Shown here: positions 1 through 10,399 of the stretch, one piece after another
How the letters are laid out: every line of letters begins with the position of its first letter
How positions within the stretch are numbered: position 1 is the first letter of the stretch
Assembly (NCBI GenBank): GCA_022703765.1
Contig: JAKJHQ010000001.1
Location: 17,854-81,853, forward strand
DNA length: 64,000 nucleotides
Reading direction: 5' to 3'
From: Candidatus Wallbacteria bacterium
GTDB taxonomy: Bacteria > Muiribacteriota > UBA9980
Notes under the pieces: model-generated
What the model was told of the DNA's origin: nothing
Databases searched by the model: none
The model's input: only the letters and a program-made list of their open reading frames with translations
Translations under genes and position numbers: made by a program

Positions 1-2308
1 TAATAACCTTTTTTGCCTCGGCGCTTTCCGTATCGAAGTCATCAGGAAGATCTGAAATAAGCATCGATAAGGGAGGATAAAATTTAATGTCTTTTTTATT
101 TGGGAGCCATGGTTTTGATTTTAAAATTTTTAAAATTTCAGTTTCTTCTTTTGGATTTTTTGCCGTTGAGTAATAAAACGGATTTATGTTTCGCTTAAAA
201 GCATCGATTATAAATCTCCATAAAACGCAGGACTTAGAGATTGAAATGTTATCTAACAAATTATCAATACCTATAATAACAGGCTCTTTAAATATCGATT
301 TTTTATCGACCGGATTTGTTTTAAATCCAAGTTTATTTAATAAATCAATGTCATTGCTTTTAAAAATGTCCTCATATTCTTCAGATAAAAAGCAAATGTC
401 CGGATTTCCTTCAAAGAACTCTTCTAACATATCGTTACCAGAATACTTCAAAGGCAAAAACAATTCATCAGGCATAAAATAAGACAATTTTCCGGATAAT
501 TTATTCAAGCCGAGAAAGATCCTGGTTTCTTTAAGTTTTTGAATTAAAAGTTGTTTATTAGTAATATCTTTTCGAAAAATTTCAATTATTTTCTTTATAT
601 GGCATATGTTTTGGTCAACGGACGGCAAGACATCTGAATTGTATAAAGGCAAAATAAATTTAATTACTTCATCGATTTCATCAGGCTTTTTAATTCCGAT
701 AAGACTAAAGAAATCTTTCGTTAAATCACTTTCTGATATTCGCCTTTTAACCATCGAAAAATATGTATTGTTTTCATCAAATAAAAACACTTGAGGCCGT
801 TCATTTTCATCAAAAGGTTTAATATGGGAATCATTTTCAAGCCGGATAAATGGTTTATGCCTTAACAAGCCATCAGACGCGCAAGCGGCGGACTTTTTCT
901 GCCATAAAGAAATGCTTTTAGAAAGATAAAAATAAAAGTCAATAACCCATTCGTCGGATTGTTTTAATATAAAATCCATATCGAAAAGATCGGCGAATTT
1001 ATTGCCATCTATATTGTTTACTCGCAGTTTTTGCCTAAAATATAAAGCCAAATCTCTATATTTAAAAATATCCGGATGGATCATCCTGGCATTTATATTT
1101 TTAGTTAGTATATTTAAATTATTGTTTTGAGATAATAAATTTAATAATCTTGAGTTTTCAGCGTAATATGCGTTTTTATATTCGACATATCCCTCGTCAT
1201 CGTTTGGAATCAACTGTTCTTCTGACATAAGTTTTTCAAAAACTTTTTCATACGCGCTTCTAAATCTACTTTTTATAGGAAAATCAGATTCGTTGATAGG
1301 CAAAATATTTAAAAAATCCGGATTTAAAAAACCAAGTTTTTTGATTGATAAGATGCTATCGGATATCAATGTTGATATTTCACTGTTTAATTTTAAATTC
1401 CAAACATCGGCAGGCGGCACATTGTCTCTGGCTGGAGTTGTTTTATAGGGGCCTTGCACTAGAAATTTTAAACGCGTATCTATGTTAGTGGGAAAATAAA
1501 CTACAAGCTTTGAATCACTAATTTCTCTTATAGTTTCCGTTTTTGTTTTATCATCGAATTCAATTTTATAAGCAATTTCAACTTTCAAGTCAAGTTCATT
1601 ATTTTCTTCACTATTTACTTTTCTCTTAAAAACAAGCCATTTTTCGCCAATTTTTTTTGTAATATCCGAAACTATAACGATGCTGGACTGGTCATCGATA
1701 ATATTTACCTTCTTTTCGATTATACCTGCGGAACTTTGATTGATCCGCCATTCAAGTTTTTGAATATAATTTAAAAAAAGGATTGTCCTTACGTCGATTT
1801 CAATCAATTTCTTTTTAATTAAATCATATATTTCGTCTTTTGATCTTTTTTTATGCTCGAATTTGAAAACAAATTTTGTAATCTCCGAATTGTATTGAGT
1901 TTCGATAAGTTCAGGCAAAACTAAATTTTTTATATTAAAACTGTAGGTTTTGGAATAAATTTCTGGAGAATTTGTTATAGCATATACCGACTTAAAACCA
2001 ATTCCAAATTTGCCGATTTTATTGACGTCATCTTTTTTCGTGCTGTTACCGATGCTGGTAATCGAAGCGACGTCTTTAAACAAAAAACTAACACCGTCAT
2101 GAAAAAATTCAAGCCGGTCATCAAACAAAATAAAACTGACCGATTTAGCTTTTTGATCTTCCGCATTTTGAATTAATTCATAAATAAAATGAGAAGGATC
2201 GTCGTATAATCCGGAAAATATTTCTTCAAAATTGAAATTATTGTTAGGTCTTTTTAGAGCGTCAAGATATATTTTTCTATCATTAATCAGCTCATTAAAA
2301 TCATTCAT
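1..2308 (-). CDS. Large sacsin/MORC-like GHKL (Bergerat-fold) ATPase. The N-terminus lies in the window; the C-terminus runs past the window start, so more than 769 aa are present.
   Basis: An open minus-strand frame runs from ATG at 2306-2308 (GGAGG RBS at 2316-2320) to position 1 with no stop. The N-terminus carries Bergerat motifs: FIYELIQNAEDQKA (motif I, ExxxNxxD), HDGVSF (motif II) and GKFGIGFKSVY (motif III, GxxGxG). The six-frame track misses it because the stop lies outside the window. Confidence 0.6.
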   Translation of the reverse strand, partial: MNDFNELINDRKIYLDALKRPNNNFNFEEIFSGLYDDPSHFIYELIQNAEDQKAKSVSFILFDDRLEFFHDGVSFLFKDVASITSIGNSTKKDDVNKIGKFGIGFKSVYAITNSPEIYSKTYSFNIKNLVLPELIETQYNSEITKFVFKFEHKKRSKDEIYDLIKKKLIEIDVRTILFLNYIQKLEWRINQSSAGIIEKKVNIIDDQSSIVIVSDITKKIGEKWLVFKRKVNSEENNELDLKVEIAYKIEFDDKTKTETIREISDSKLVVYFPTNIDTRLKFLVQGPYKTTPARDNVPPADVWNLKLNSEISTLISDSILSIKKLGFLNPDFLNILPINESDFPIKSRFRSAYEKVFEKLMSEEQLIPNDDEGYVEYKNAYYAENSRLLNLLSQNNNLNILTKNINARMIHPDIFKYRDLALYFRQKLRVNNIDGNKFADLFDMDFILKQSDEWVIDFYFYLSKSISLWQKKSAACASDGLLRHKPFIRLENDSHIKPFDENERPQVFLFDENNTYFSMVKRRISESDLTKDFFSLIGIKKPDEIDEVIKFILPLYNSDVLPSVDQNICHIKKIIEIFRKDITNKQLLIQKLKETRIFLGLNKLSGKLSYFMPDELFLPLKYSGNDMLEEFFEGNPDICFLSEEYEDIFKSNDIDLLNKLGFKTNPVDKKSIFKEPVIIGIDNLLDNISISKSCVLWRFIIDAFKRNINPFYYSTAKNPKEETEILKILKSKPWLPNKKDIKFYPPLSMLISDLPDDFDTESAEAKKVI

Positions 2309-2363
2309 TAAAAACCTCCAAAACTTCTAATTTATAGTTAATTACATACGATGAACGGCGGTT

Positions 2364-3050
2364 TTATCTTCTAAACGGATTAATGTCATTGTTAGTGTGC
2401 AAAAAAACGTCGCCAATCGGTCTCACCTTTCTGTAATCTGTTTCATTATTATATCCTCCGAATCTGTTAACAAACATGCCATTTGAGAGCAAATACCACT
2501 TGTAACCGTGCTTCAACTTAGAAATTCCATGTTCTTTCATTAATTCAAGCAACGGTTTGACGCTATTGCTATTAAGATAATTATGTACAGTATTTAAAAC
2601 TTTTCTAATTTGAAGATCTGTTTCGTCAAATTGTTTTAAAAATTGGGATATTTCAACTTCTTCGCCTTCTATGACGTCTTCAATTTCACCATCTTCAACT
2701 TCGCCGTCTTCAATAAATTCATAGTCTAAATTTTTTCCTTCCCAAAAAGGTTGTATATCTCTGTTTGATCTTATAAATACATCGCCCAGTGAAGGAACTT
2801 GAGATACATGTCCCTGCTTTGAGCCATATCTGTTAACAAAATCGCCATTGACTTTTAAAAACCATTTTAAGGCGCCGTTTTCATTGTGATACAAGCAATC
2901 TACATTCATCTTCTCCATTAATTTAATAAGTTTGTGAACGCTTGTGCCTTTCAACTGACATGTGCTTCCGATCGGGACTAAAATTCCAAGATCAAGTAAT
3001 TTTTGAAATCCTATTTCGTGAAAAAATTCTATTGAATCGCGTTTATTCAT
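2364..3050 (-). CDS. Hypothetical protein made of two tandem copies of an unrecognised ~95-aa domain (W.L..G.FVNR[YF]GG ... GDVF...N.I[NQ]PF), joined by an acidic linker.
   Basis: ATG at 3050 with a GGGAGGG RBS. The halves are internally duplicated: KWFLKVNGDFVNRYGSKQGHVSQVPSLGDVFIRSNRDIQPF and KWYLLSNGMFVNRFGGYNNETDYRKVRPIGDVFLHTNNDINPF. The same domain opens the CDS at 6826..7941. Confidence 0.55.
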   Translation of the reverse strand: MNKRDSIEFFHEIGFQKLLDLGILVPIGSTCQLKGTSVHKLIKLMEKMNVDCLYHNENGALKWFLKVNGDFVNRYGSKQGHVSQVPSLGDVFIRSNRDIQPFWEGKNLDYEFIEDGEVEDGEIEDVIEGEEVEISQFLKQFDETDLQIRKVLNTVHNYLNSNSVKPLLELMKEHGISKLKHGYKWYLLSNGMFVNRFGGYNNETDYRKVRPIGDVFLHTNNDINPFRR

Positions 3051-3063
3051 TTCGTCCCTCCCT

Positions 3064-3405
3064 TTACATATTTATAATTTTCCATTGAGCGCTCTGACTG
3101 GGCCTGCCCTCTACATCTTTAACGCGACATTTAATTTTATGCAGGATGATTGGAAAAGTCGGCGTAGAACGACCCCTGGGCCATTTTCCGTTGCTTTCAG
3201 TATATGTCCCTTTTTCTTTATCAAAACAGTGGTCGCTTAACATTCTTCCTATATCAGCATTATATGAATCGCATACTGAAGTATCTTTATCTCTTAAATA
3301 TTGGCCTTTGATGGCAATTATAACGTCAATCGTATAAAATAAAGTCTTGCCTTCATCACGCCATTTTTTGATTAATTCTTCAATAAAAGTAACATGATCG
3401 AACAT
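3064..3405 (-). CDS. Small hypothetical protein of about 113 aa. The start was moved to an internal ATG that has a GAGGTG RBS.
   Basis: ORF 3064..3417. An ATG at 3403-3405 is preceded by GAGGTG. It sits 13 nt upstream of the next gene in the same orientation. No recognisable motif. Confidence 0.4.
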   Translation of the reverse strand: MFDHVTFIEELIKKWRDEGKTLFYTIDVIIAIKGQYLRDKDTSVCDSYNADIGRMLSDHCFDKEKGTYTESNGKWPRGRSTPTFPIILHKIKCRVKDVEGRPSQSAQWKIINM

Positions 3406-3504
3406 ATCGCACCTCACAATTCCGATTTTTATCTAATTTATTTACTCACATAACTAATAATTCTAACTTATTTTAAAATCAAAAAAATTATTAATTTTTT
3501 TAAT

Positions 3505-4803
3505 TTATAATGTTTCAATCTTCTTAAATTTCTCGATAATACTCTCGGTCACTGACTTTTCCGTTCTCGTTACAGCCTTCATTATATCGTCTTTAAGAAT
3601 GTGGTCACGCTCGATGTCATTCCGGTCGAAGGCGTCGAAGGCGGCTTCATCAACGATGTGCGCTATGTCTGCGCCGGAATAACCGTCAAGTGCGGCGGCT
3701 ATGTCTATCATTTCGGTTTCGCCGATCTGGCAGGCTTTGTCTTTAAGGTTGATTTTAAGGATTTTTAGGCGTTCTTCGGCGTTCGGCAGGCCTACATAAA
3801 ATTTCTTGTCGAAACGGCCGGGACGGAGGAAAGCTTTGTCGATTTTCTGCGGCTCGTTAGTGGCAGCTATAATGATTATCTGGCGGTCTTTTTCGTTGAA
3901 GAGCGTGCTTAATTGCGATAAAAGGACCGGCGTGATGCGCTCCATAACCGACGACGACTGGCCGTCGCGGGTCTTTAATATCCACTCGGCCTCATCCATG
4001 AATAGCACGGCGCGCGGCTGGCGTGCGATCTCGCTGAATAATTTTTCGAGGTTCTCCTCGGCCTCGCCGGGATAGCCTATTATGAATGAAGGGGTTATTT
4101 CGAAGAATTTCGCCTGTATCTCGCTGCTGATCGCGCGGGCAATAAGGGTCTTGCCCGTGCCGGGCGGACCGTAAAGGAGCATTCCGCCCCCGACGCGCAG
4201 TTTGAATTTGTCGGCGCGCTCAGGGTCCTTTGCGGGCGCGATGATGCGGCTTCGGATGAAGTTTTTGACCTGGTCGAGGCCGGCTACCTGATCGAGGTCG
4301 AAGCCGGCTTCTATTATCTGGCCGGGCAGGGCGGGCGGTTCGGCGTCGATCTCGAGGAATTCTTTGAGTTCGGGCGGCATGTCTTCGAGCGTGCCGTAGA
4401 ATAGTTTCAAGACTTTTTCGGTGATATCGGGGCCGTGAACCGGATATTGCGGGTATGAAAAGCATCCGAATTTCGCCAGTTTTAACTTGATTATTTTATC
4501 CAGGCGATCGAATGCGTTTTCTATGTATAAGATATTTGCGGTGACGGGGCGGACTTTGACATGAAGCGGATATTCGCCGCGGAACGCGCCCGGAACGAGA
4601 TTATAACCCGGCCGGTCTTCCGCCGCGAAAACGCCTATAAGATTTTGCCTTTCGGCATTATAAAGAAAGCCTATATGGCCTTTTTCAATGCTCTGCAGGT
4701 TGGCGTGATCGTATTTTACGCCGCCGAAGACGCCTTTTTCGATGCATTCGGCCTCCGTTTTGTTGTTGCAGATCCTGAAAAAGCACGGAACTTTTATCCT
4801 CAT
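3505..4803 (-). CDS. DCD-domain (PUA-like, EVE/YTH-related) protein fused to a classical AAA+ ATPase.
   Basis: The N-terminus has DCD motifs: FRICNNKTEAECIEKGVFGG, GFLYNAERQNLIGVFAA and PGAFRGEYPLHVKVRPV. The AAA module has Walker A GPPGTGKT, Walker B VLFMDEAE and second-region-of-homology ATNEPQKIDKAFLRPGRFD. The start was set at the second Met (AGGGGTGG RBS 5 nt upstream); the longest ORF begins at 4857. Confidence 0.75.
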   Translation of the reverse strand: MRIKVPCFFRICNNKTEAECIEKGVFGGVKYDHANLQSIEKGHIGFLYNAERQNLIGVFAAEDRPGYNLVPGAFRGEYPLHVKVRPVTANILYIENAFDRLDKIIKLKLAKFGCFSYPQYPVHGPDITEKVLKLFYGTLEDMPPELKEFLEIDAEPPALPGQIIEAGFDLDQVAGLDQVKNFIRSRIIAPAKDPERADKFKLRVGGGMLLYGPPGTGKTLIARAISSEIQAKFFEITPSFIIGYPGEAEENLEKLFSEIARQPRAVLFMDEAEWILKTRDGQSSSVMERITPVLLSQLSTLFNEKDRQIIIIAATNEPQKIDKAFLRPGRFDKKFYVGLPNAEERLKILKINLKDKACQIGETEMIDIAAALDGYSGADIAHIVDEAAFDAFDRNDIERDHILKDDIMKAVTRTEKSVTESIIEKFKKIETL

Positions 4804-4893
4804 AAAGACCACCCCTGTTAATGAATTAATTTTATCAATTATAAATTTATTTGTCAAATAATAGTTTAAGTAGATTTGATATTTTTTTATATG

Positions 4894-5283
4894 CTATCTG
4901 CCGTCTTCCTGACTTTCAATCCTCGCGATGCGTTTTCTTAATTCCATTAATAATTGGAACATGTTCATCTTCCGGAACAGCATTTCGCTTCTCATTTCGC
5001 TTAGCGCTCTTTCTCTTAGTTTCGCCTGCCGTCTTTCTTCTTTCTCAAGCTCAATCCGCTTCTGCTCTTCGTACTGACGTTTTAGCACGTCCAGTTTTTC
5101 TTTTTGCTTTGCCTGGATTTGCTGCCGGTATAACTTGACGTAAAGCGGTGCAAATCCAATTATAGGTCCAAGGATCGCGATATAGGGATTTTCTAAAGCA
5201 TAGTTGCCGCATATAAAGATGACGGCGATAATAAAAATCATCGATTTGACGTATACCCATATAAAATCAAACAGCGTTACCAT
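4894..5283 (-). CDS. Small membrane protein with two predicted TM helices and a charged coiled-coil C-terminus.
   Basis: GAGGAGGT RBS. Hydrophobic N-terminal segments IFIIAVIFICGNYAL and ILGPIIGFAPLYV, then a K/E/R-rich heptad region. Co-oriented within the cluster. Confidence 0.5.
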   Translation of the reverse strand: MVTLFDFIWVYVKSMIFIIAVIFICGNYALENPYIAILGPIIGFAPLYVKLYRQQIQAKQKEKLDVLKRQYEEQKRIELEKEERRQAKLRERALSEMRSEMLFRKMNMFQLLMELRKRIARIESQEDGR

Positions 5284-5378
5284 ATAAATACCTCCTCATC
5301 ATATTTGTAATAGCCGGAAATGGCAATAACATGAATACGAAAAGTTTGCGCTAATTCACTAAATTTGCCTTCATATGA

Positions 5379-6818
5379 TTAAATCGCTTCATCATCTGGT
5401 ATCTGTACATATTCGTTCCGTGACCTTTCGGCGAGGTCCGCCCGGCCGCATTTTTCGTAATATTCAATAGACAGACGGAAATGTTCTCGCGCGCCCCGCA
5501 TCGCGCCATAGGCGGCGAACTCGAGCCCGGCCGAATAGTGGAGCCGGCCCATGTAAAGCGCATTGGTAACGCCGCGCTCGCCGGCAGTTGCGATAGCACG
5601 GCAGTAAAGTTTTAGAGTAGTTTCATGATCGTCAAGCGCGTTTGAATACGCGTCGCAAATGCTCAATAAATCGCGCAGGGGCCTCACGTTATCATCGGAT
5701 ATCAGGCCCAGGTATAATTCGGCGGCGAGAGGCAGATAAGTTTCCGCCGCACCGGTTTCGCTAATGGCGATTGCGGCTTCGGCAATGCCTTTGTATGCAT
5801 CGGCAAGCAGAATGTCGCGGCCAGGCGAAGACGGCATATCCGCAAGCAGGCCGGACGCCGCGCTGAACGCTTCTAAGGCGCCGCGATAGTCGGTTACACA
5901 CATAAGTGAAGAGCCGCCGGTGTTTTCGATAGAAGCGAATACCTCGGGATCGTTAATGCCGCACTCTATCGTATGGCGCTTCAGATCGGCGTTATAAGAG
6001 ATCGCCATGCCGTACCAGCCCAGCTCGGCGCAGGCAAGAAAAGCGAGCTCATAGGCTTCGCGAAGATCGGCATATGGAAAAGAAACCGCCGAAAAGGGTT
6101 TTGGCGGAATATTGCCCGAATGCTCCACCGCCGCATAGCCGTGCTTTTCAATTAAGCCCTCATAAACGGATATCGCGCTGTTTAACTGGCGGAACGCTTC
6201 TTCATATCTGTCGGCCTCCAACAAATAACGGCCGTAGCAGCAATAATAATCGGCGACGGCCGGATCGTTGAGACCGCGCGCCTTCAATATCTCGATCAGC
6301 GCAAGACGCATGTCTTCGCACGCGCCGGCATATTCTTTAAGGGCGCAATGCGCGGCCGCGCGCTTTTTTAATATCATATATTTTTGAACGCTTTCGCTAC
6401 TATCCAGGTCGGACGCCGCGCCGGCTGCGTCACGCCACATTTCTGAGTCGTCGAGGGCCTTTAACGCTTCTTCGAAGCTCCCGTTCTCAATATGGATATA
6501 TGCCGCCGAGTAAAATGCGGTAGCAATGCCGGCTTTGTCCACCGCGCCGCCGCGCACGAAAGTTATGAGCGCCGATTCTATTAATTTAAGCGCCTGCTCG
6601 AAACGGCCGGCGTCATACTCACGCCAGGCTTCTTCGAGCAGCGCACGCGCTCGGTCGGCGCTCGAGCCGGCAAATTCGTCAATACGCGAGGCTGCAAGAG
6701 CAGAAAGTTCACTTATCGAAGGGACCGGTTCATCGGCGGGATCGTTTTGAGCGGCGCCCTCTCCGTGAGGGGTCTGAAAATATTCATCGAGCCTGTCTAA
6801 AAATTCTGAATCGCCCAT
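5379..6818 (-). CDS. TPR-repeat protein.
   Basis: Repeated helical motifs with A/L/Y/G spacing typical of TPR, for example FEQALKLIESAL, YEEAFRQLNSAISVYEGL and ALYMGRLHYSAGLEF. GC-rich gene, 7 nt downstream of the preceding gene. Confidence 0.65.
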   Translation of the reverse strand: MGDSEFLDRLDEYFQTPHGEGAAQNDPADEPVPSISELSALAASRIDEFAGSSADRARALLEEAWREYDAGRFEQALKLIESALITFVRGGAVDKAGIATAFYSAAYIHIENGSFEEALKALDDSEMWRDAAGAASDLDSSESVQKYMILKKRAAAHCALKEYAGACEDMRLALIEILKARGLNDPAVADYYCCYGRYLLEADRYEEAFRQLNSAISVYEGLIEKHGYAAVEHSGNIPPKPFSAVSFPYADLREAYELAFLACAELGWYGMAISYNADLKRHTIECGINDPEVFASIENTGGSSLMCVTDYRGALEAFSAASGLLADMPSSPGRDILLADAYKGIAEAAIAISETGAAETYLPLAAELYLGLISDDNVRPLRDLLSICDAYSNALDDHETTLKLYCRAIATAGERGVTNALYMGRLHYSAGLEFAAYGAMRGAREHFRLSIEYYEKCGRADLAERSRNEYVQIPDDEAI

Positions 6819-6825
6819 AATAACT

Positions 6826-7941
6826 TCACCTTCTTCCGCCCGCGGGCTTTCTTTTTAAATAAGCCTCCAGCGTGACCGCAAGCTGCGGGTTAGCGCAGGC
6901 GACCTTCAGCATCTCATAAAAATAATCGCCTTCGAGCTCCCGGTAGGCGTCAAGTATATCTTTCCAGCCGATAAGCCTTACCCGCGAAGGATTGCAGCCC
7001 GCCGGACGCAATCCTTCTTCATAGTCAGGCGCGCTTCCCTCGCCGCGGGGGGCGCCGGTTAATTCGGCCAGCAATCCGGCTTCAAATTCAGCCGTAGGAG
7101 AAAGAATAAGGCCGACATGCGCAAAGTTTTCGGGCGGCATGGCGTTGCGCTCCATGATAGTATTTATAACAGGCATCTGCCTGCGCATCTGGGCGGCGAG
7201 ATCGGACGCCGTCACGTAGTCGTACATCTTCGCCTCGACCACCACCAGGAATTTTTCGCCGCACGCCGCGCGCAGCAATATAACGATATCCGGCGTGTCG
7301 CGCTTTATATGCCATACTTCCCGCCAATCCAGGGCGGATTCTTTGAGCGAATATTCGGTGTAGAAACATATTTCAGAATTCGAATATTCAGTTTTGATAA
7401 ATTTATCCGGAACGCCGGCCATTTTAAGAAAAATATGCAGACGGCTGAAACGGCCGCCGCAGACTATATTCGGAAATACGCATGAAGTCCAGTAGCGTTC
7501 TTTCCTGTTAAGCGGCAGCGAGTTTATCATATCGTTCATTTCACCGGCGCGCTCGAGATCGGTTGCGCGAAAGGCGCGGGCTGCAGAGCCCGGGAGTTCG
7601 GGGCGCCCGGACGGGTTCAAGCCGCCAGGTTTCTTGCAGTAAAAGGGATTAATGCGCCTGTTGGCCCCTCTAAATACCTCACCCATAGAAGAAACCGATG
7701 TTAGCTTAACCGGTTCGTCATGGCCGCCATAACGGTTTACGAAAACGCCGCCGGACTCCAGCGACCAGTCTTCGCCGAATTCCAGCCCGGAAACGCCTTT
7801 CTGCTCCATAAAAGCCATAAGCGGCGCAACGCTCGCGCCAGTAAGAATAAGCTTTTCACCGTTGATTATCCCGAGCTTCATAAGCTTGCATAGCCCCGCA
7901 GACTCCAAAAATACGGTAATGTTTTCAACAACGCCTTGCAT
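6826..7941 (-). CDS. Fusion of the unrecognised ~95-aa domain (N-terminus) to a PD-(D/E)xK nuclease-fold domain (C-terminus).
   Basis: AAAGGGGTGA RBS. The N-terminal copy is DWSLESGGVFVNRYGGHDEPVKLTSVSSMGEVFRGANRRINPF. The C-terminal half has a textbook motif, TPDIVILLRAACGEKFLVVVEAKMYD (PD ... ExK), with an upstream acidic EICFYTEYS. Confidence 0.6.
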   Translation of the reverse strand: MQGVVENITVFLESAGLCKLMKLGIINGEKLILTGASVAPLMAFMEQKGVSGLEFGEDWSLESGGVFVNRYGGHDEPVKLTSVSSMGEVFRGANRRINPFYCKKPGGLNPSGRPELPGSAARAFRATDLERAGEMNDMINSLPLNRKERYWTSCVFPNIVCGGRFSRLHIFLKMAGVPDKFIKTEYSNSEICFYTEYSLKESALDWREVWHIKRDTPDIVILLRAACGEKFLVVVEAKMYDYVTASDLAAQMRRQMPVINTIMERNAMPPENFAHVGLILSPTAEFEAGLLAELTGAPRGEGSAPDYEEGLRPAGCNPSRVRLIGWKDILDAYRELEGDYFYEMLKVACANPQLAVTLEAYLKRKPAGGRR

Positions 7942-7973
7942 ATTATCACCCCTTTTTAAATTATAAAATAAGA

Positions 7974-8080
7974 CTCATTTTTATTTCATGCGGGCAGGTA
8001 TTAGTGAATAGTGTACAGTGAATAGTGAATAATGAATAGTTAAGGTTGGGGATCGCCCTGCGAGCTTTATATATAAAATA
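7974..8080 (+). repeat. Intergenic repeat family, head module (H), copy 1.
   Basis: tcatttcatgcgggcagg, then tandem agtgaatag-like units, then the ggggatcgccctgcgagc hairpin, then tttatatataaaatat. About 85% identical to 32538-32640. Inverted copies lie at 37420-37523 and 43291-43355. Confidence 0.8.
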
Positions 8081-8288
8081 TAAAAATATTCTACCTACTT
8101 TTAATTTTAGCAAAATATTATAAAAAAGTCAATAATATTCAAAAATATTTTTACCCTTTTTTAAATATTATTACCCCCTTCTGTTTTAAGTTGATTTATC
8201 AATGCATTCCTTTATACCCAAAAGCTCCCACATCAGGCGGCATAATTAAAACGCTTACCATAAAACCATAATTTCAATTTACTGAACG

Positions 8289-8606
8289 CCATAATTGCTG
8301 CGCAGACGCGAGCGAAGCGCGCGTCTGCAAAATAAAAAAACAGAGATGAGCGGAGTAGATTTGAGAAAAAGAAATAATAAATTAGAGCAGAGTAAAGTTG
8401 AGTAGAAATTTTATAGAAAAAGAGAGAAGAGAGAAAGAAAGGCTAAATAAAGTAAAACAAAAAAAAGAGAAAAGCAAACCGAATTAAAGCCGCGTCAGAA
8501 AAGCAGTCGCCGCAAGGCAATAAAGCGTCAGGCAGTTTAGGGGTTGGAAGGGATTTTAAGGGAAGGAAGGGGCCATCGGCACCTTGCCTTCCCTTATCAA
8601 AAAACA
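8289..8606 (+). repeat. Composite structured element, copy 1. It has a perfect 9-bp-stem hairpin, a purine-rich tract of about 180 nt and a long imperfect palindrome.
   Basis: ccataattgctgcgcagacgcgagcgaagcgcgcgtctgcaaaa at 8289-8332. An A/G-rich tract at 8333-8520. aaagcgtcaggc...aggggttggaagggattttaagggaaggaaggggccatcggcaccttgccttcccttatcaaaaaa at 8522-8606. The same modules occur in the same order at 23590-23820. Confidence 0.75.
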
Positions 8607-8633
8607 GGATATTTAAATGGAATAATCGGGGTT

Positions 8634-9281
8634 TTATTTTTCCAGCCATTCGGTCAGTATGGATTTGATATTATTTACGGCCCTGCGTTTTTCGGGGCTG
8701 CTTTTGCCTATATACTGCGTATCCAGAAGGAATTGAAAGGTTTTCACGGCCAGTTCGTCGGATATTTGGGTTTGTCTGCCCGAAGAAAATCCGGAGGCGG
8801 TTTCTTCGCCGGCCTCTACGGAGCGTTCCGCGGAGTCGGCCTGCGGAGCCGGGGCCGCATGGGTTTCGGCTGTTTTAAGAAGTTCGGTCACGCCTTCGCG
8901 GTCGCCTTTTTCGATCGGGCTTTCATCCACAATATGAAGCGCTTCGGCGGCGTCGATTTCGTTGAACATGACCGATTTAAAAAGTTTGGACTGTTCGCTG
9001 GAAAATTCGGCCCATTTCCTGTCATGGTAAAGAAATCTTGAAAATACGCCTATTTCGAGCGGCGATATGACGGCCGCGTCGGCGCCCGCTTCTTTGATGA
9101 GAAGCATATATATCTTGCTGTTATCGATATCGGTTATGAATATGCGTTTATTCCAGCGTGCGAATTTATTGTTGAAGAAATCCGCGGCGTCGAATATGTC
9201 TTTCGACCGTTTGCGGAAGTCGGCGTTCAGGCCCTTTTCTGAAGGCGTCTTGAGCGCCACTATTACTTTGAAAATTTTCAT
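8634..9281 (-). CDS. Hypothetical protein.
   Basis: 215-aa ORF with an AAGGCGG RBS and mixed, non-repetitive composition. The overlapping plus-strand ORF (8544..9041) is G/F-rich, consistent with an antisense artefact. Confidence 0.5.
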   Translation of the reverse strand: MKIFKVIVALKTPSEKGLNADFRKRSKDIFDAADFFNNKFARWNKRIFITDIDNSKIYMLLIKEAGADAAVISPLEIGVFSRFLYHDRKWAEFSSEQSKLFKSVMFNEIDAAEALHIVDESPIEKGDREGVTELLKTAETHAAPAPQADSAERSVEAGEETASGFSSGRQTQISDELAVKTFQFLLDTQYIGKSSPEKRRAVNNIKSILTEWLEK

Positions 9282-9304
9282 ATGACCGCCTTGCTTTTTG
9301 GAAA

Positions 9305-10399
9305 TTATTTGATTTTACCAGCCGTTAATTTTTCGAAAGTTTCGTTCATCAACGGGTATTTAACTATGCCGAGTTTATAATCGAAATGCCACCATTCGTC
9401 TTCGTAAACTGTAAAGCCGGCCTTGTTCATATAGCGTTCTAAAAGTTTTCTGTGCCAGCGGGCGTTAGAGGTAGCGCCTTCGAATTTAGGCGAAGCGCGT
9501 TCGCTGAATTCGTCGTAGCCGCTGCCCATTTCGATCAACTTTCCGGTTTTGAGATCGTAAAGGCCGACATCCACTGCCGTGCCGCGATTATGGCGCGAGC
9601 CTTTCGACGGGTCGGCCACGAAATTTTTCTGCGCGGCAGGCGTCGCGTCGTAAAACATTTTAGTGACGTACCAGGGTCTGTAAGCGTCGTAAACTATCAT
9701 GGCGAGTCCGTGGCGTTCGAGCGAGCGGGCGACATATAAAAGGCCGTAAGCCGCCGGTTTCTGTAAAAACGCGCCGGGCGAGTCATAAAATTTAGCGCCC
9801 ATGAAGTTATTTTCGGTGGCGTAGCGGATATCAAAGATCAGGTTACCGCCGAGGTTTTTAAGGTCCACGAGTTCAGATTCGCATGTGGCGTCGGCTTCGC
9901 GCGGCGGCCCGGCGGAAAGCGCGGCGCGTTTTAATTCGCCGATCGGTTTGAGGGGTTTTATTTTATAAGTCCCGCCGTTTTCGGAGCCGTAAACAAGCTG
10001 TTTATAGAGAGTTCCGTTAACTTCGCAATGGAACCGGGCGCTTCTGACGGGCGCGTAAAATTCAACGGAGCGGATCCCGCCGGGGAGTGAATCGCCGGCG
10101 GAATAACGCATGCCGTTAATTTTTGAAAGGTTATAATACTTGCCGTCGCGGAGTATTTTTAAAACTCCGGAGTCTTCGAGAGCGATAAAGGAATCGCGTG
10201 CGTCGTTAATATTTTCATACCTTCCGAGCAGCGCTTCGATATCGGCGGCGGGGCGGGGCGGCGCCTGGCCGAAAACCTCATTGAACGAGGGTTCCGGCTG
10301 AAAAGCCGGCAGCGAAGATACGTCAAAGCATATAGCCAGCGCGGCAAATATAAAAACTAAAAGGTTAAAAAACCTCGTTTTATTTTTCATTAAGATCAA
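9305..10399 (-). CDS. Secreted D-Ala-D-Ala dipeptidase family protein (VanX/DdpX-like, peptidase M15) with an N-terminal extension.
   Basis: Signal peptide MKNKTRFFNLLVFIFAALAICF. YDAYRP, SRHNRGTAVDVGLYD (the zinc-binding SxHxxGxAxD motif) and EDEWWHFDYK (EWWH[FY]). Confidence 0.6.
   Translation of the reverse strand: MILMKNKTRFFNLLVFIFAALAICFDVSSLPAFQPEPSFNEVFGQAPPRPAADIEALLGRYENINDARDSFIALEDSGVLKILRDGKYYNLSKINGMRYSAGDSLPGGIRSVEFYAPVRSARFHCEVNGTLYKQLVYGSENGGTYKIKPLKPIGELKRAALSAGPPREADATCESELVDLKNLGGNLIFDIRYATENNFMGAKFYDSPGAFLQKPAAYGLLYVARSLERHGLAMIVYDAYRPWYVTKMFYDATPAAQKNFVADPSKGSRHNRGTAVDVGLYDLKTGKLIEMGSGYDEFSERASPKFEGATSNARWHRKLLERYMNKAGFTVYEDEWWHFDYKLGIVKYPLMNETFEKLTAGKIK

Follow-up and report, generated by a model that had tools for sequence, protein, structure and literature searches.

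A 64,000-nucleotide stretch of DNA from Candidatus Wallbacteria bacterium (contig JAKJHQ010000001.1, positions 17,854 to 81,853; termed the window) encodes, close to its start, a protein that joins an N-terminal DCD domain to a single AAA+ ATPase module. The question raised by this locus is what a bacterium would do with a fold shared with readers of modified bases when that fold is attached to a motor of the protein-unfolding kind. The analyses described here suggest that this protein, termed DCD-AAA, is probably an undescribed accessory of anti-virus defence. A more specific reading, which we favor tentatively and which falls short of being probable, is that DCD-AAA is a nucleic-acid-tethered protein remodeller that assists or controls restriction-type defence effectors.

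A single open reading frame (ORF) occupies positions 3505 to 4857 on the minus strand, the plus-strand translation of this range being riddled with stop codons. The maximal ORF encodes 450 amino acids (aa) from a TTG codon at 4857. The true start is almost certainly the ATG at 4803, giving a 432-aa protein beginning MRIKVPCFF, because GenBank entry OQA79402.1 is identical to this protein in length and sequence, because the TTG forms part of a promoter-like site and because a purine-rich, ribosome-binding-like GGGGTGG is present just 5′ of the ATG. Entry OQA79402.1 derives from the metagenome-assembled genome "bacterium ADurb.Bin243," and near-identical copies of the 432-aa protein carry the label Candidatus Wallbacteria. 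The first base of the promoter-like site, TTGACA-17-TAAAAT, is that of the TTG at 4857; this site has 11 of 12 consensus matches and an extended −10 TG, was the top-scoring site in positions 1 to 10000 and, by its match to the consensus, is a candidate promoter. An earlier note on this DNA had placed the gene at 3505 to 4857, which is correct for the maximal ORF but not for the gene proper (3505 to 4803), and the residue numbers given in that note fit the ATG at 4803. All of the DCD and AAA peptides listed in the note were located in this one minus-strand ORF, with Pfam matches far beyond chance: FRICNNKTEAECIEKGVFGG at aa 9 to 28, GFLYNAERQNLIGVFAA at aa 45 to 61, PGAFRGEYPLHVKVRPV at aa 71 to 87, GPPGTGKT at aa 212 to 219 and FMDEAE at aa 268 to 273. 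The features of the gene are as follows.

3505..4803, minus strand: DCD-AAA protein, 432 aa plus stop (ORF; Pfam DCD, AAA and AAA_lid_3 matches; exact match to OQA79402.1)
4384..4803, minus strand: DCD module, aa 1-140, PUA-like EVE/YTH fold
4309..4383, minus strand: variable linker, aa 141-165 (low conservation and many indels in alignment A1)
3508..4308, minus strand: classical-clade AAA+ module with lid, aa 166-432, single copy (PF00004, AAA_lid_3, nearest solved proteins, invariant motifs)
4147-4170, minus strand: Walker A, within the DCD-AAA gene
4066-4077, minus strand: pore loop GYPG, within the DCD-AAA gene
3985-4002, minus strand: Walker B, within the DCD-AAA gene
3808-3864, minus strand: second region of homology with R327/R330, within the DCD-AAA gene
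4829..4857, minus strand: promoter-like site TTGACA-17-TAAAAT with extended −10, directly 5′ of the ATG (candidate, from its consensus match)

The N-terminal module was identified both by profile and by fold. Pfam family PF10539 (Dev_Cell_Death) matched aa 11 to 89 with an E value of 3.5e-13 and 49.9 bits, above the gathering cut-off of 27.8, and also matched all 83 of the other relatives scanned. In fold comparisons, PH1033/UPF0310 (EVE-type) topped the list with a score of 13.6; other matches were several YTH domains (10-11), some of which were solved with m6A RNA, the modification-dependent endonuclease VcaM4I (10.1), ASCH (8.7), THYN1 bound to 5mC DNA (7.8) and two archaeal McrB N-domains (6.6-7.1). 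The Foldseek ranking of these matches was identical, with a probability of 1.00. The module has the EVE/YTH-type pseudo-barrel fold of the PUA-like superfamily, and the assignment of the N terminus to DCD and PUA-like domains in the earlier note was, hence, upheld by the profile and by the best folds. A sequence search of all PDB chains with the DCD profile yielded a chance match only (E 0.96), and therefore no solved DCD structure is recognizable by sequence.

The family consensus of the DCD module (CFFMxC..TE.EC..GLFG, GFLLN and AW.G.FPAQVKV) agrees with the FGLP-like, LFLFN-like and PAQV-like signature motifs that Tenhaken and colleagues are said to have described for plant DCD proteins in 2005; the window copy has GVFGG, GFLYN and AFRGEYPLHVKV. 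Aromatic residues are conserved at F8, F26, F46, F59, W/F74 and F/Y78, and standalone DCD proteins of ~138 aa span the entire 140-residue module. The module is basic, with a median isoelectric point of ~9 and a mean net charge of +4, while the full-length protein is near neutral. This charge is weakly consistent with nucleic-acid binding.

The C-terminal 270 residues constitute one classical-clade AAA+ module, with matches to PF00004 (aa 208-338, E 1.3e-33) and AAA_lid_3 (aa 367-395, E 2.8e-7) in Pfam. The module contains a Walker A motif (GPPGTGKT), a Walker B motif (DEAE), the sensor-1 residue N316 and residues R327 and R330 of the second region of homology. At the site of the sensor-2 arginine of other clades stands GYSGADI, and a G-Y/F-P-G pore loop aligns with the MW(Y/F)G loop of Cdc48 D2. 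These motifs and the pore loop are invariant or nearly so across 25 diverse family members, and the best matches in PDB were to Cdc48, p97 and archaeal VAT, involving both D1 and D2. The motifs, the two arginines, the AAA_lid_3 match and the lack of a sensor-2 arginine are all those of the classical clade and, judged from its sequence, the module is catalytically intact and Cdc48-like. The earlier note had assigned the core to this clade and not to that of McrB, in agreement with the PF00004 and Cdc48-type matches and with the finding that AAA_5, the McrB type, matches the P-loop only (aa 208-236, 23 bits).

The nearest NCBIfam models were PAN, CDC48, FtsH and CdvC, every score being far under the family cut-off. 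Identity with FtsH was rejected, as there was no peptidase match, no membrane anchor and an FtsH_fam score of 149.6 against a cut-off of 600; the protein terminates 30 residues past the AAA lid. On these features, the GenBank name of OQA79402.1, "ATP-dependent zinc metalloprotease FtsH 4," is incorrect. In the last 15 columns of alignment A1, most family members share a conserved C-terminal W-A/G-x-x-R-G, which the window protein and those nearest to it lack.

A homologue search covering 5.8 billion proteins, with clustering at 90% identity, detected more than 115 clusters of ~430-aa proteins having the same DCD, AAA and lid architecture and being 41 to 94% identical to the query; the fusion is a conserved family that spans no fewer than ten bacterial phyla as well as archaea. 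Those relatives with names are called "AAA family ATPase," "transitional endoplasmic reticulum ATPase" or similar, the latter being a JGI name that overlooks the DCD domain. Among one-genome-per-species contigs, all from metagenome-assembled genomes, bacterial carriers were found in Wallbacteria, Kryptonium/Thermokryptus, WOR-3, Planctomycetota, Bacteroidales, Ignavibacteria, Thermotogaceae, Omnitrophota and a deltaproteobacterium and archaeal carriers in Pacearchaeota and Promethearchaeota. This patchy distribution over distant phyla points to horizontal transfer. No relatives were present in IMG/VR viral contigs, sequenced phages or PLSDB plasmids, and a phage-borne or anti-restriction origin was, therefore, rejected; the gene was classed as host-encoded.

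A search of 1.84 billion cluster representatives with the DCD profile yielded 1,925 DCD proteins at an E value of <0.001. In the best 150 of these 1,925, a sample skewed toward the query's own family, the Cdc48-like module was the commonest recognizable multidomain form (11 to 12 proteins), other fusions being to a FokI cleavage domain (2), an NYN RNase (2), a DNA methylase (1), AAA_5 (1) and eukaryote-type CCCH fingers (5). No description of a fusion between DCD and a classical AAA module was found in the open-access literature searched; literature beyond this may hold one.

Genomic neighbours were clustered over 38 non-redundant DCD-AAA loci, and those that were recurrent or adjacent were annotated. 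The DCD-AAA gene was often situated inside a restriction-modification (RM) operon, on the same strand as its neighbours and with 4-bp overlaps or gaps of <20 bp. In L018, the order is HsdM, MNT, HEPN, HsdS, a 77-aa gene, DCD-AAA and HsdR, with 4-bp overlaps flanking DCD-AAA on both ends. In L010, a UvrD/PD-(D/E)xK helicase-nuclease is followed by Mod, DCD-AAA and Res, with gaps of 2 and 17 nucleotides (nt). Related arrangements were DCD-AAA, Mod, AbiJ/HEPN and Res (L047); HsdR, a YgjP-like metallopeptidase and DCD-AAA (L056); DCD-AAA between or beside hsd genes (L093 and L068); DCD-AAA after ResIII helicases (L005 and L069); and DCD-AAA beside RmuC, Mod, MNT-HEPN and Res, with an adjoining integrase fragment (L002). 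Other neighbours included PDDEXK_3 (L006), Schlafen/AlbA_2 (L053) and RAMP genes (L020). The repeated placement of this gene between those for restriction subunits is a stronger argument for a role in defence than a count of proximities.

Standalone DCD genes were also observed at the ends of type I operons, in the order HsdM, HsdS, HsdR, YgjP/SprT-like and DCD. A YgjP/SprT-like gene lies between HsdR and the DCD gene in L029-L032, with a standalone 138-aa DCD protein (e.g., L029 5266-6417), and in L056 (7156-9287), with the fusion. This arrangement resembles the pairing of eukaryotic SprT/Wss1-type proteases with Cdc48. Nothing of use on YgjP in connection with type I restriction emerged from the literature searched. 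In a single instance (L065 2522-3463), a ClpP-like serine protease gene of the SDH type was present directly 3′ of DCD-AAA, forming a possible unfoldase-protease pair. The DCD-AAA gene of the type I hsd operon in L093 (8019-9290) is interrupted, leaving one part of 284 aa and an AAA-lid part of 119 aa; a frameshift has made it a pseudogene, or else the assembly is at fault.

In the window, the DCD-AAA gene is part of a minus-strand block that comprises, from upstream to downstream, the following genes.

8634..9281, minus strand: 215-aa conserved protein, "C9," 46% identical to the proteins at the corresponding place in L003 and L026; no significant Pfam match
6826..7941, minus strand: 371-aa protein with a "C1" domain (aa 1-100) and a C-terminal PD-(D/E)xK nuclease-fold domain
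5379..6818, minus strand: 479-aa TPR protein (TPR_12, 1.9e-8), with TPR proteins in the matching place in L003 and L026
4894..5283, minus strand: 129-aa predicted membrane protein, charged in its tail and encoded directly upstream of DCD-AAA; a 98% identical copy is in the same position in L033
3505..4803, minus strand: DCD-AAA, as above
3064..3417, minus strand: 117-aa protein downstream of DCD-AAA, with a 90% identical L025 orthologue in place; no family match
2364..3050, minus strand: 228-aa protein with two "C1" copies, both halves matching aa 8-101 of the 371-aa protein; L025 orthologue 85% identical
1..2308, minus strand: Tiamat-like TmtA, N-terminal 769 aa, sacsin-type GHKL ATPase (PADLOC TmtA, 7.3e-66; Pfam SACS, 2.7e-18), continuing past the window start

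A weak PvuII match of the 215-aa protein was below the threshold, as were weak KwaA and S_4TM matches of the 129-aa membrane protein, and none of these was used. The tail of the latter protein is lysine/glutamate-rich. Genes from position 9305 onward look like housekeeping genes by eye and, if so, the island would end near 9300.

The downstream neighbour matches the PADLOC TmtA model and has the GHKL/sacsin ATPase of Tiamat; its C-terminal part was judged from the L025 orthologue, which is 89% identical, is 1,056 aa long, has SACS, HATPase_c_3 and nuclease-like NOV_C domains and is followed by a Mokosh-like helicase. Statements on Tiamat rest on PADLOC models and on one preprint sentence, in which Tiamat is classed as a single-gene system with a PD-(D/E)xK domain; the text of the preprint of Millman et al. 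contains no mention of Tiamat. "C1" is an undescribed domain of ~100 aa with the motif FVNRYGG...GDVF...N..INPF and no Pfam match, and the AlphaFold2 model was confident across it (pLDDT of >90). It occurs in the window at 6826-7941 (aa 1-100) fused to a PD-(D/E)xK domain, in the window at 2364-3050 as a tandem pair and in L001 at 2572-4821 (aa ~470-605) fused to ankyrin repeats, always near DCD-AAA and TmtA genes.

Related loci have much of this organization. In L003 and L026, where DCD-AAA is 61% identical to the window protein, genes for a 220-aa protein, a TPR protein, a C1 plus PD-(D/E)xK protein and a small protein precede DCD-AAA, and TmtA is next where the contig extends. In L025 (87% identity), the downstream genes are collinear with those of the window. 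In L001, DCD-AAA is 93% identical but the middle gene is different and TmtA is only 25% identical (L001 4939-8575 versus window 1-2308); a comparison of these sequences indicates that the TmtA cassette has been exchanged in L001 while the slot next to DCD-AAA was kept. TmtA follows DCD-AAA in all four of the window-clade loci that extend far enough, even after replacement of the cassette, and we take this as evidence of a functional linkage between DCD-AAA and TmtA beyond mere proximity. A step in G+C content was observed exactly at the 3′ end of DCD-AAA, from 44 to 50% for this gene to 21 to 37% for TmtA and the small genes preceding it (positions 3505-8000 versus 1-3417 of the window), and is common to the window, L025, L001 and L003.

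Taken as a nucleic-acid-tethered remodeller, DCD-AAA would, by analogy with characterized classical-clade AAA+ proteins, form a hexameric ring of single Cdc48-like ATPase modules with a Tyr/Phe-Pro-Gly pore loop, from which six basic DCD domains of the EVE/YTH fold would hang on flexible linkers. These domains would dock the ring on nucleic acid bearing a base modification or a related nucleotide cue. ATP hydrolysis would then pull on a protein sitting there, unfolding or extracting it, and this pulling would support or control the adjoining restriction-type effector. In the window, the effector would be the Tiamat-like TmtA GHKL-nuclease with the C1-domain and PD-(D/E)xK proteins and, elsewhere, a type I or type III RM enzyme. 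A precedent for such a role of an AAA+ unfoldase is provided by ClpXP, which acts on the DNA-bound type I enzyme EcoKI as cited in PMC12707154.

Several observations weigh against this proposal. Binding of modified bases, or of any nucleic acid, by DCD domains is a prediction (Bell et al. 2020, PMC7641849), and the only ligands for which binding to such a domain has been measured are proteins, PevD1 (KD of 0.19 μM) and CRY2 (4.34 μM), which were determined by SPR (surface plasmon resonance) with the NRP DCD domain from Arabidopsis. Because the window protein and its closest relatives have His at Gln81, a position conserved in all DCD domains, and Phe at Trp74, the ligand of this clade may be unlike that of the rest of the family. 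Neighbour clustering of the 38 loci detected no universal partner gene. In 11 of these 38, the distance to a type I or III RM gene is 6 kb or less, a descriptive count without a background, and several loci (L027, L009 and L011) had no defence neighbour. PADLOC has no model for DCD-AAA, the AAA part alone matching IetA. As DCD-AAA has a candidate promoter of its own, it may be transcribed separately from its neighbours.

The measured protein ligands also fit the strongest of the alternatives, in which the DCD domain serves as an N-domain that binds proteins, like that of Cdc48 or the PUA-like one of Lon, and the ring unfolds particular proteins, for example those of phages, anti-restriction proteins or toxins of the host, with no reading of nucleic acid. 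We regard this explanation as unlikely, although deserving serious consideration.

In a second alternative, suggested by the earlier note, DCD-AAA follows the logic of McrB: the ring would translocate or clamp modified DNA and hand it to the PD-(D/E)xK protein or TmtA for cutting, as in a type IV system with a different motor. The fusion of a reader fold to an AAA+ ATPase was confirmed and fits this logic, but the motor belongs to another clade, with AAA_5 similarity confined to the P-loop, and classical-clade AAA proteins thread polypeptides and are not known to thread duplex DNA. In addition, nothing resembling McrC was detected as a partner, the 38 loci share no conserved nuclease partner and most of the RM-embedded loci already have a complete restriction enzyme. 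A McrB-like function is, hence, quite improbable.

A third possibility is self-protection, with the DCD domain reading host methylation and the ring stripping or unfolding HsdR, Res or TmtA that has engaged the chromosome of the same cell, aided in some operons by YgjP; the protein would then be a dedicated means of restriction alleviation, encoded in the operon itself. The position of DCD-AAA, inserted so as to separate Mod or HsdS from Res or HsdR, the placement of the YgjP metallopeptidase after HsdR with both the fusion (L056) and a standalone DCD protein (L029), and the established precedent of ClpXP-mediated degradation of DNA-engaged EcoKI (PMC12707154) are all consistent with this explanation. 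Recognition of m6A or m4C by DCD domains is, however, hypothetical, the explanation is wholly inferential and many family members adjoin no RM genes; we consider it attractive but quite improbable. A role in housekeeping, through quality control of RNA or ribosomes, or in catalysis, with the DCD domain as a modified-base hydrolase like the ASCH proteins YqfB and ZmASCH, and with the defence neighbours being coincidental, is very unlikely given the patchy distribution typical of horizontal transfer, the recurrent same-strand embedding in RM operons and neighbourhoods as variable as those of defence islands.

PUA-like readers (EVE, YTH, SRA and ASCH) act in defence as specificity modules joined to nucleases or to the McrB GTPase. 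DCD-AAA likewise combines a reader fold with an NTPase of the ring-forming type in restriction contexts; its new feature is a motor of the protein-unfolding kind. If the remodeller proposal is correct, protein remodelling guided by nucleic acid is a step of some restriction-type systems that the current type I, type III and Tiamat models lack. If self-protection were instead the function, DCD-AAA would bring to prokaryotic immunity its first "segregase" that is encoded in an operon and guided by modification in the control of self versus non-self, and would parallel mechanistically the action of eukaryotic Cdc48/p97 and SprT/Wss1-type proteases on proteins bound to DNA. Bacterial members of the family are, in addition, a tractable means of finding what the DCD domain binds; this domain was connected with programmed cell death in plants twenty years ago and still has no biochemical function assigned to it. 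The present result also corrects the database names "FtsH 4" and "transitional ER (endoplasmic reticulum) ATPase."

Comparison with known systems places DCD-AAA at a distance from each. McrB proteins of McrBC systems, including the archaeal YTH-McrB and PUA-like-McrB forms, have a motor of the AAA_5/McrB GTPase clade and a McrC partner, whereas DCD-AAA has a classical Cdc48-like motor, no McrC and no conserved nuclease partner; without an AAA_5 core or an adjacent McrC, membership of the McrBC type IV systems was rejected. The DCD proteins of prokaryotes covered by Bell, Wolf and Koonin (2020, PMC7641849) share with DCD-AAA the domain, the association with type I restriction and the predicted role as modified-base readers; the fusions reported in that text are to PD-(D/E)xK, McrB-like and Rossmann methyltransferase domains, with no classical AAA+ fusion. 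The ATPase module has its best sequence matches in Cdc48/p97/VAT, PAN, FtsH and Vps4. Its likeness to the Cdc48 type comprises Walker A and B, sensor-1, two Arg fingers, AAA_lid_3, the aromatic pore loop and an Ala replacing the sensor-2 Arg, but Cdc48-type proteins have two ATPase modules and a double-psi barrel N-domain where DCD-AAA has one module and a DCD N-domain, and FtsH has a protease domain and a membrane anchor, neither of which is present in DCD-AAA. IetAS also employs a classical-type AAA+ ATPase in phage defence, and the PADLOC IetA model matches the AAA part of DCD-AAA (E 4e-30). This match is limited to aa 188 to 421, the models give no sign of a DCD domain in IetA, the NCBIfam IteA score was 94.6 against a cut-off of 510 and the locus contains no IetS-like protease; membership was, hence, rejected. 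ClpXP alleviation of EcoKI resembles the proposed activity in that an AAA+ unfoldase acts on a DNA-engaged type I motor (PMC12707154), which gives a functional precedent for siting an unfoldase gene within hsd operons, but ClpX, unlike DCD-AAA, is a general housekeeping unfoldase of another clade, is encoded outside the RM operon and has no nucleic-acid reader domain. DCD-AAA is not an FtsH, McrB or IetA protein but belongs both to the DCD domain family and to the classical AAA+ clade.

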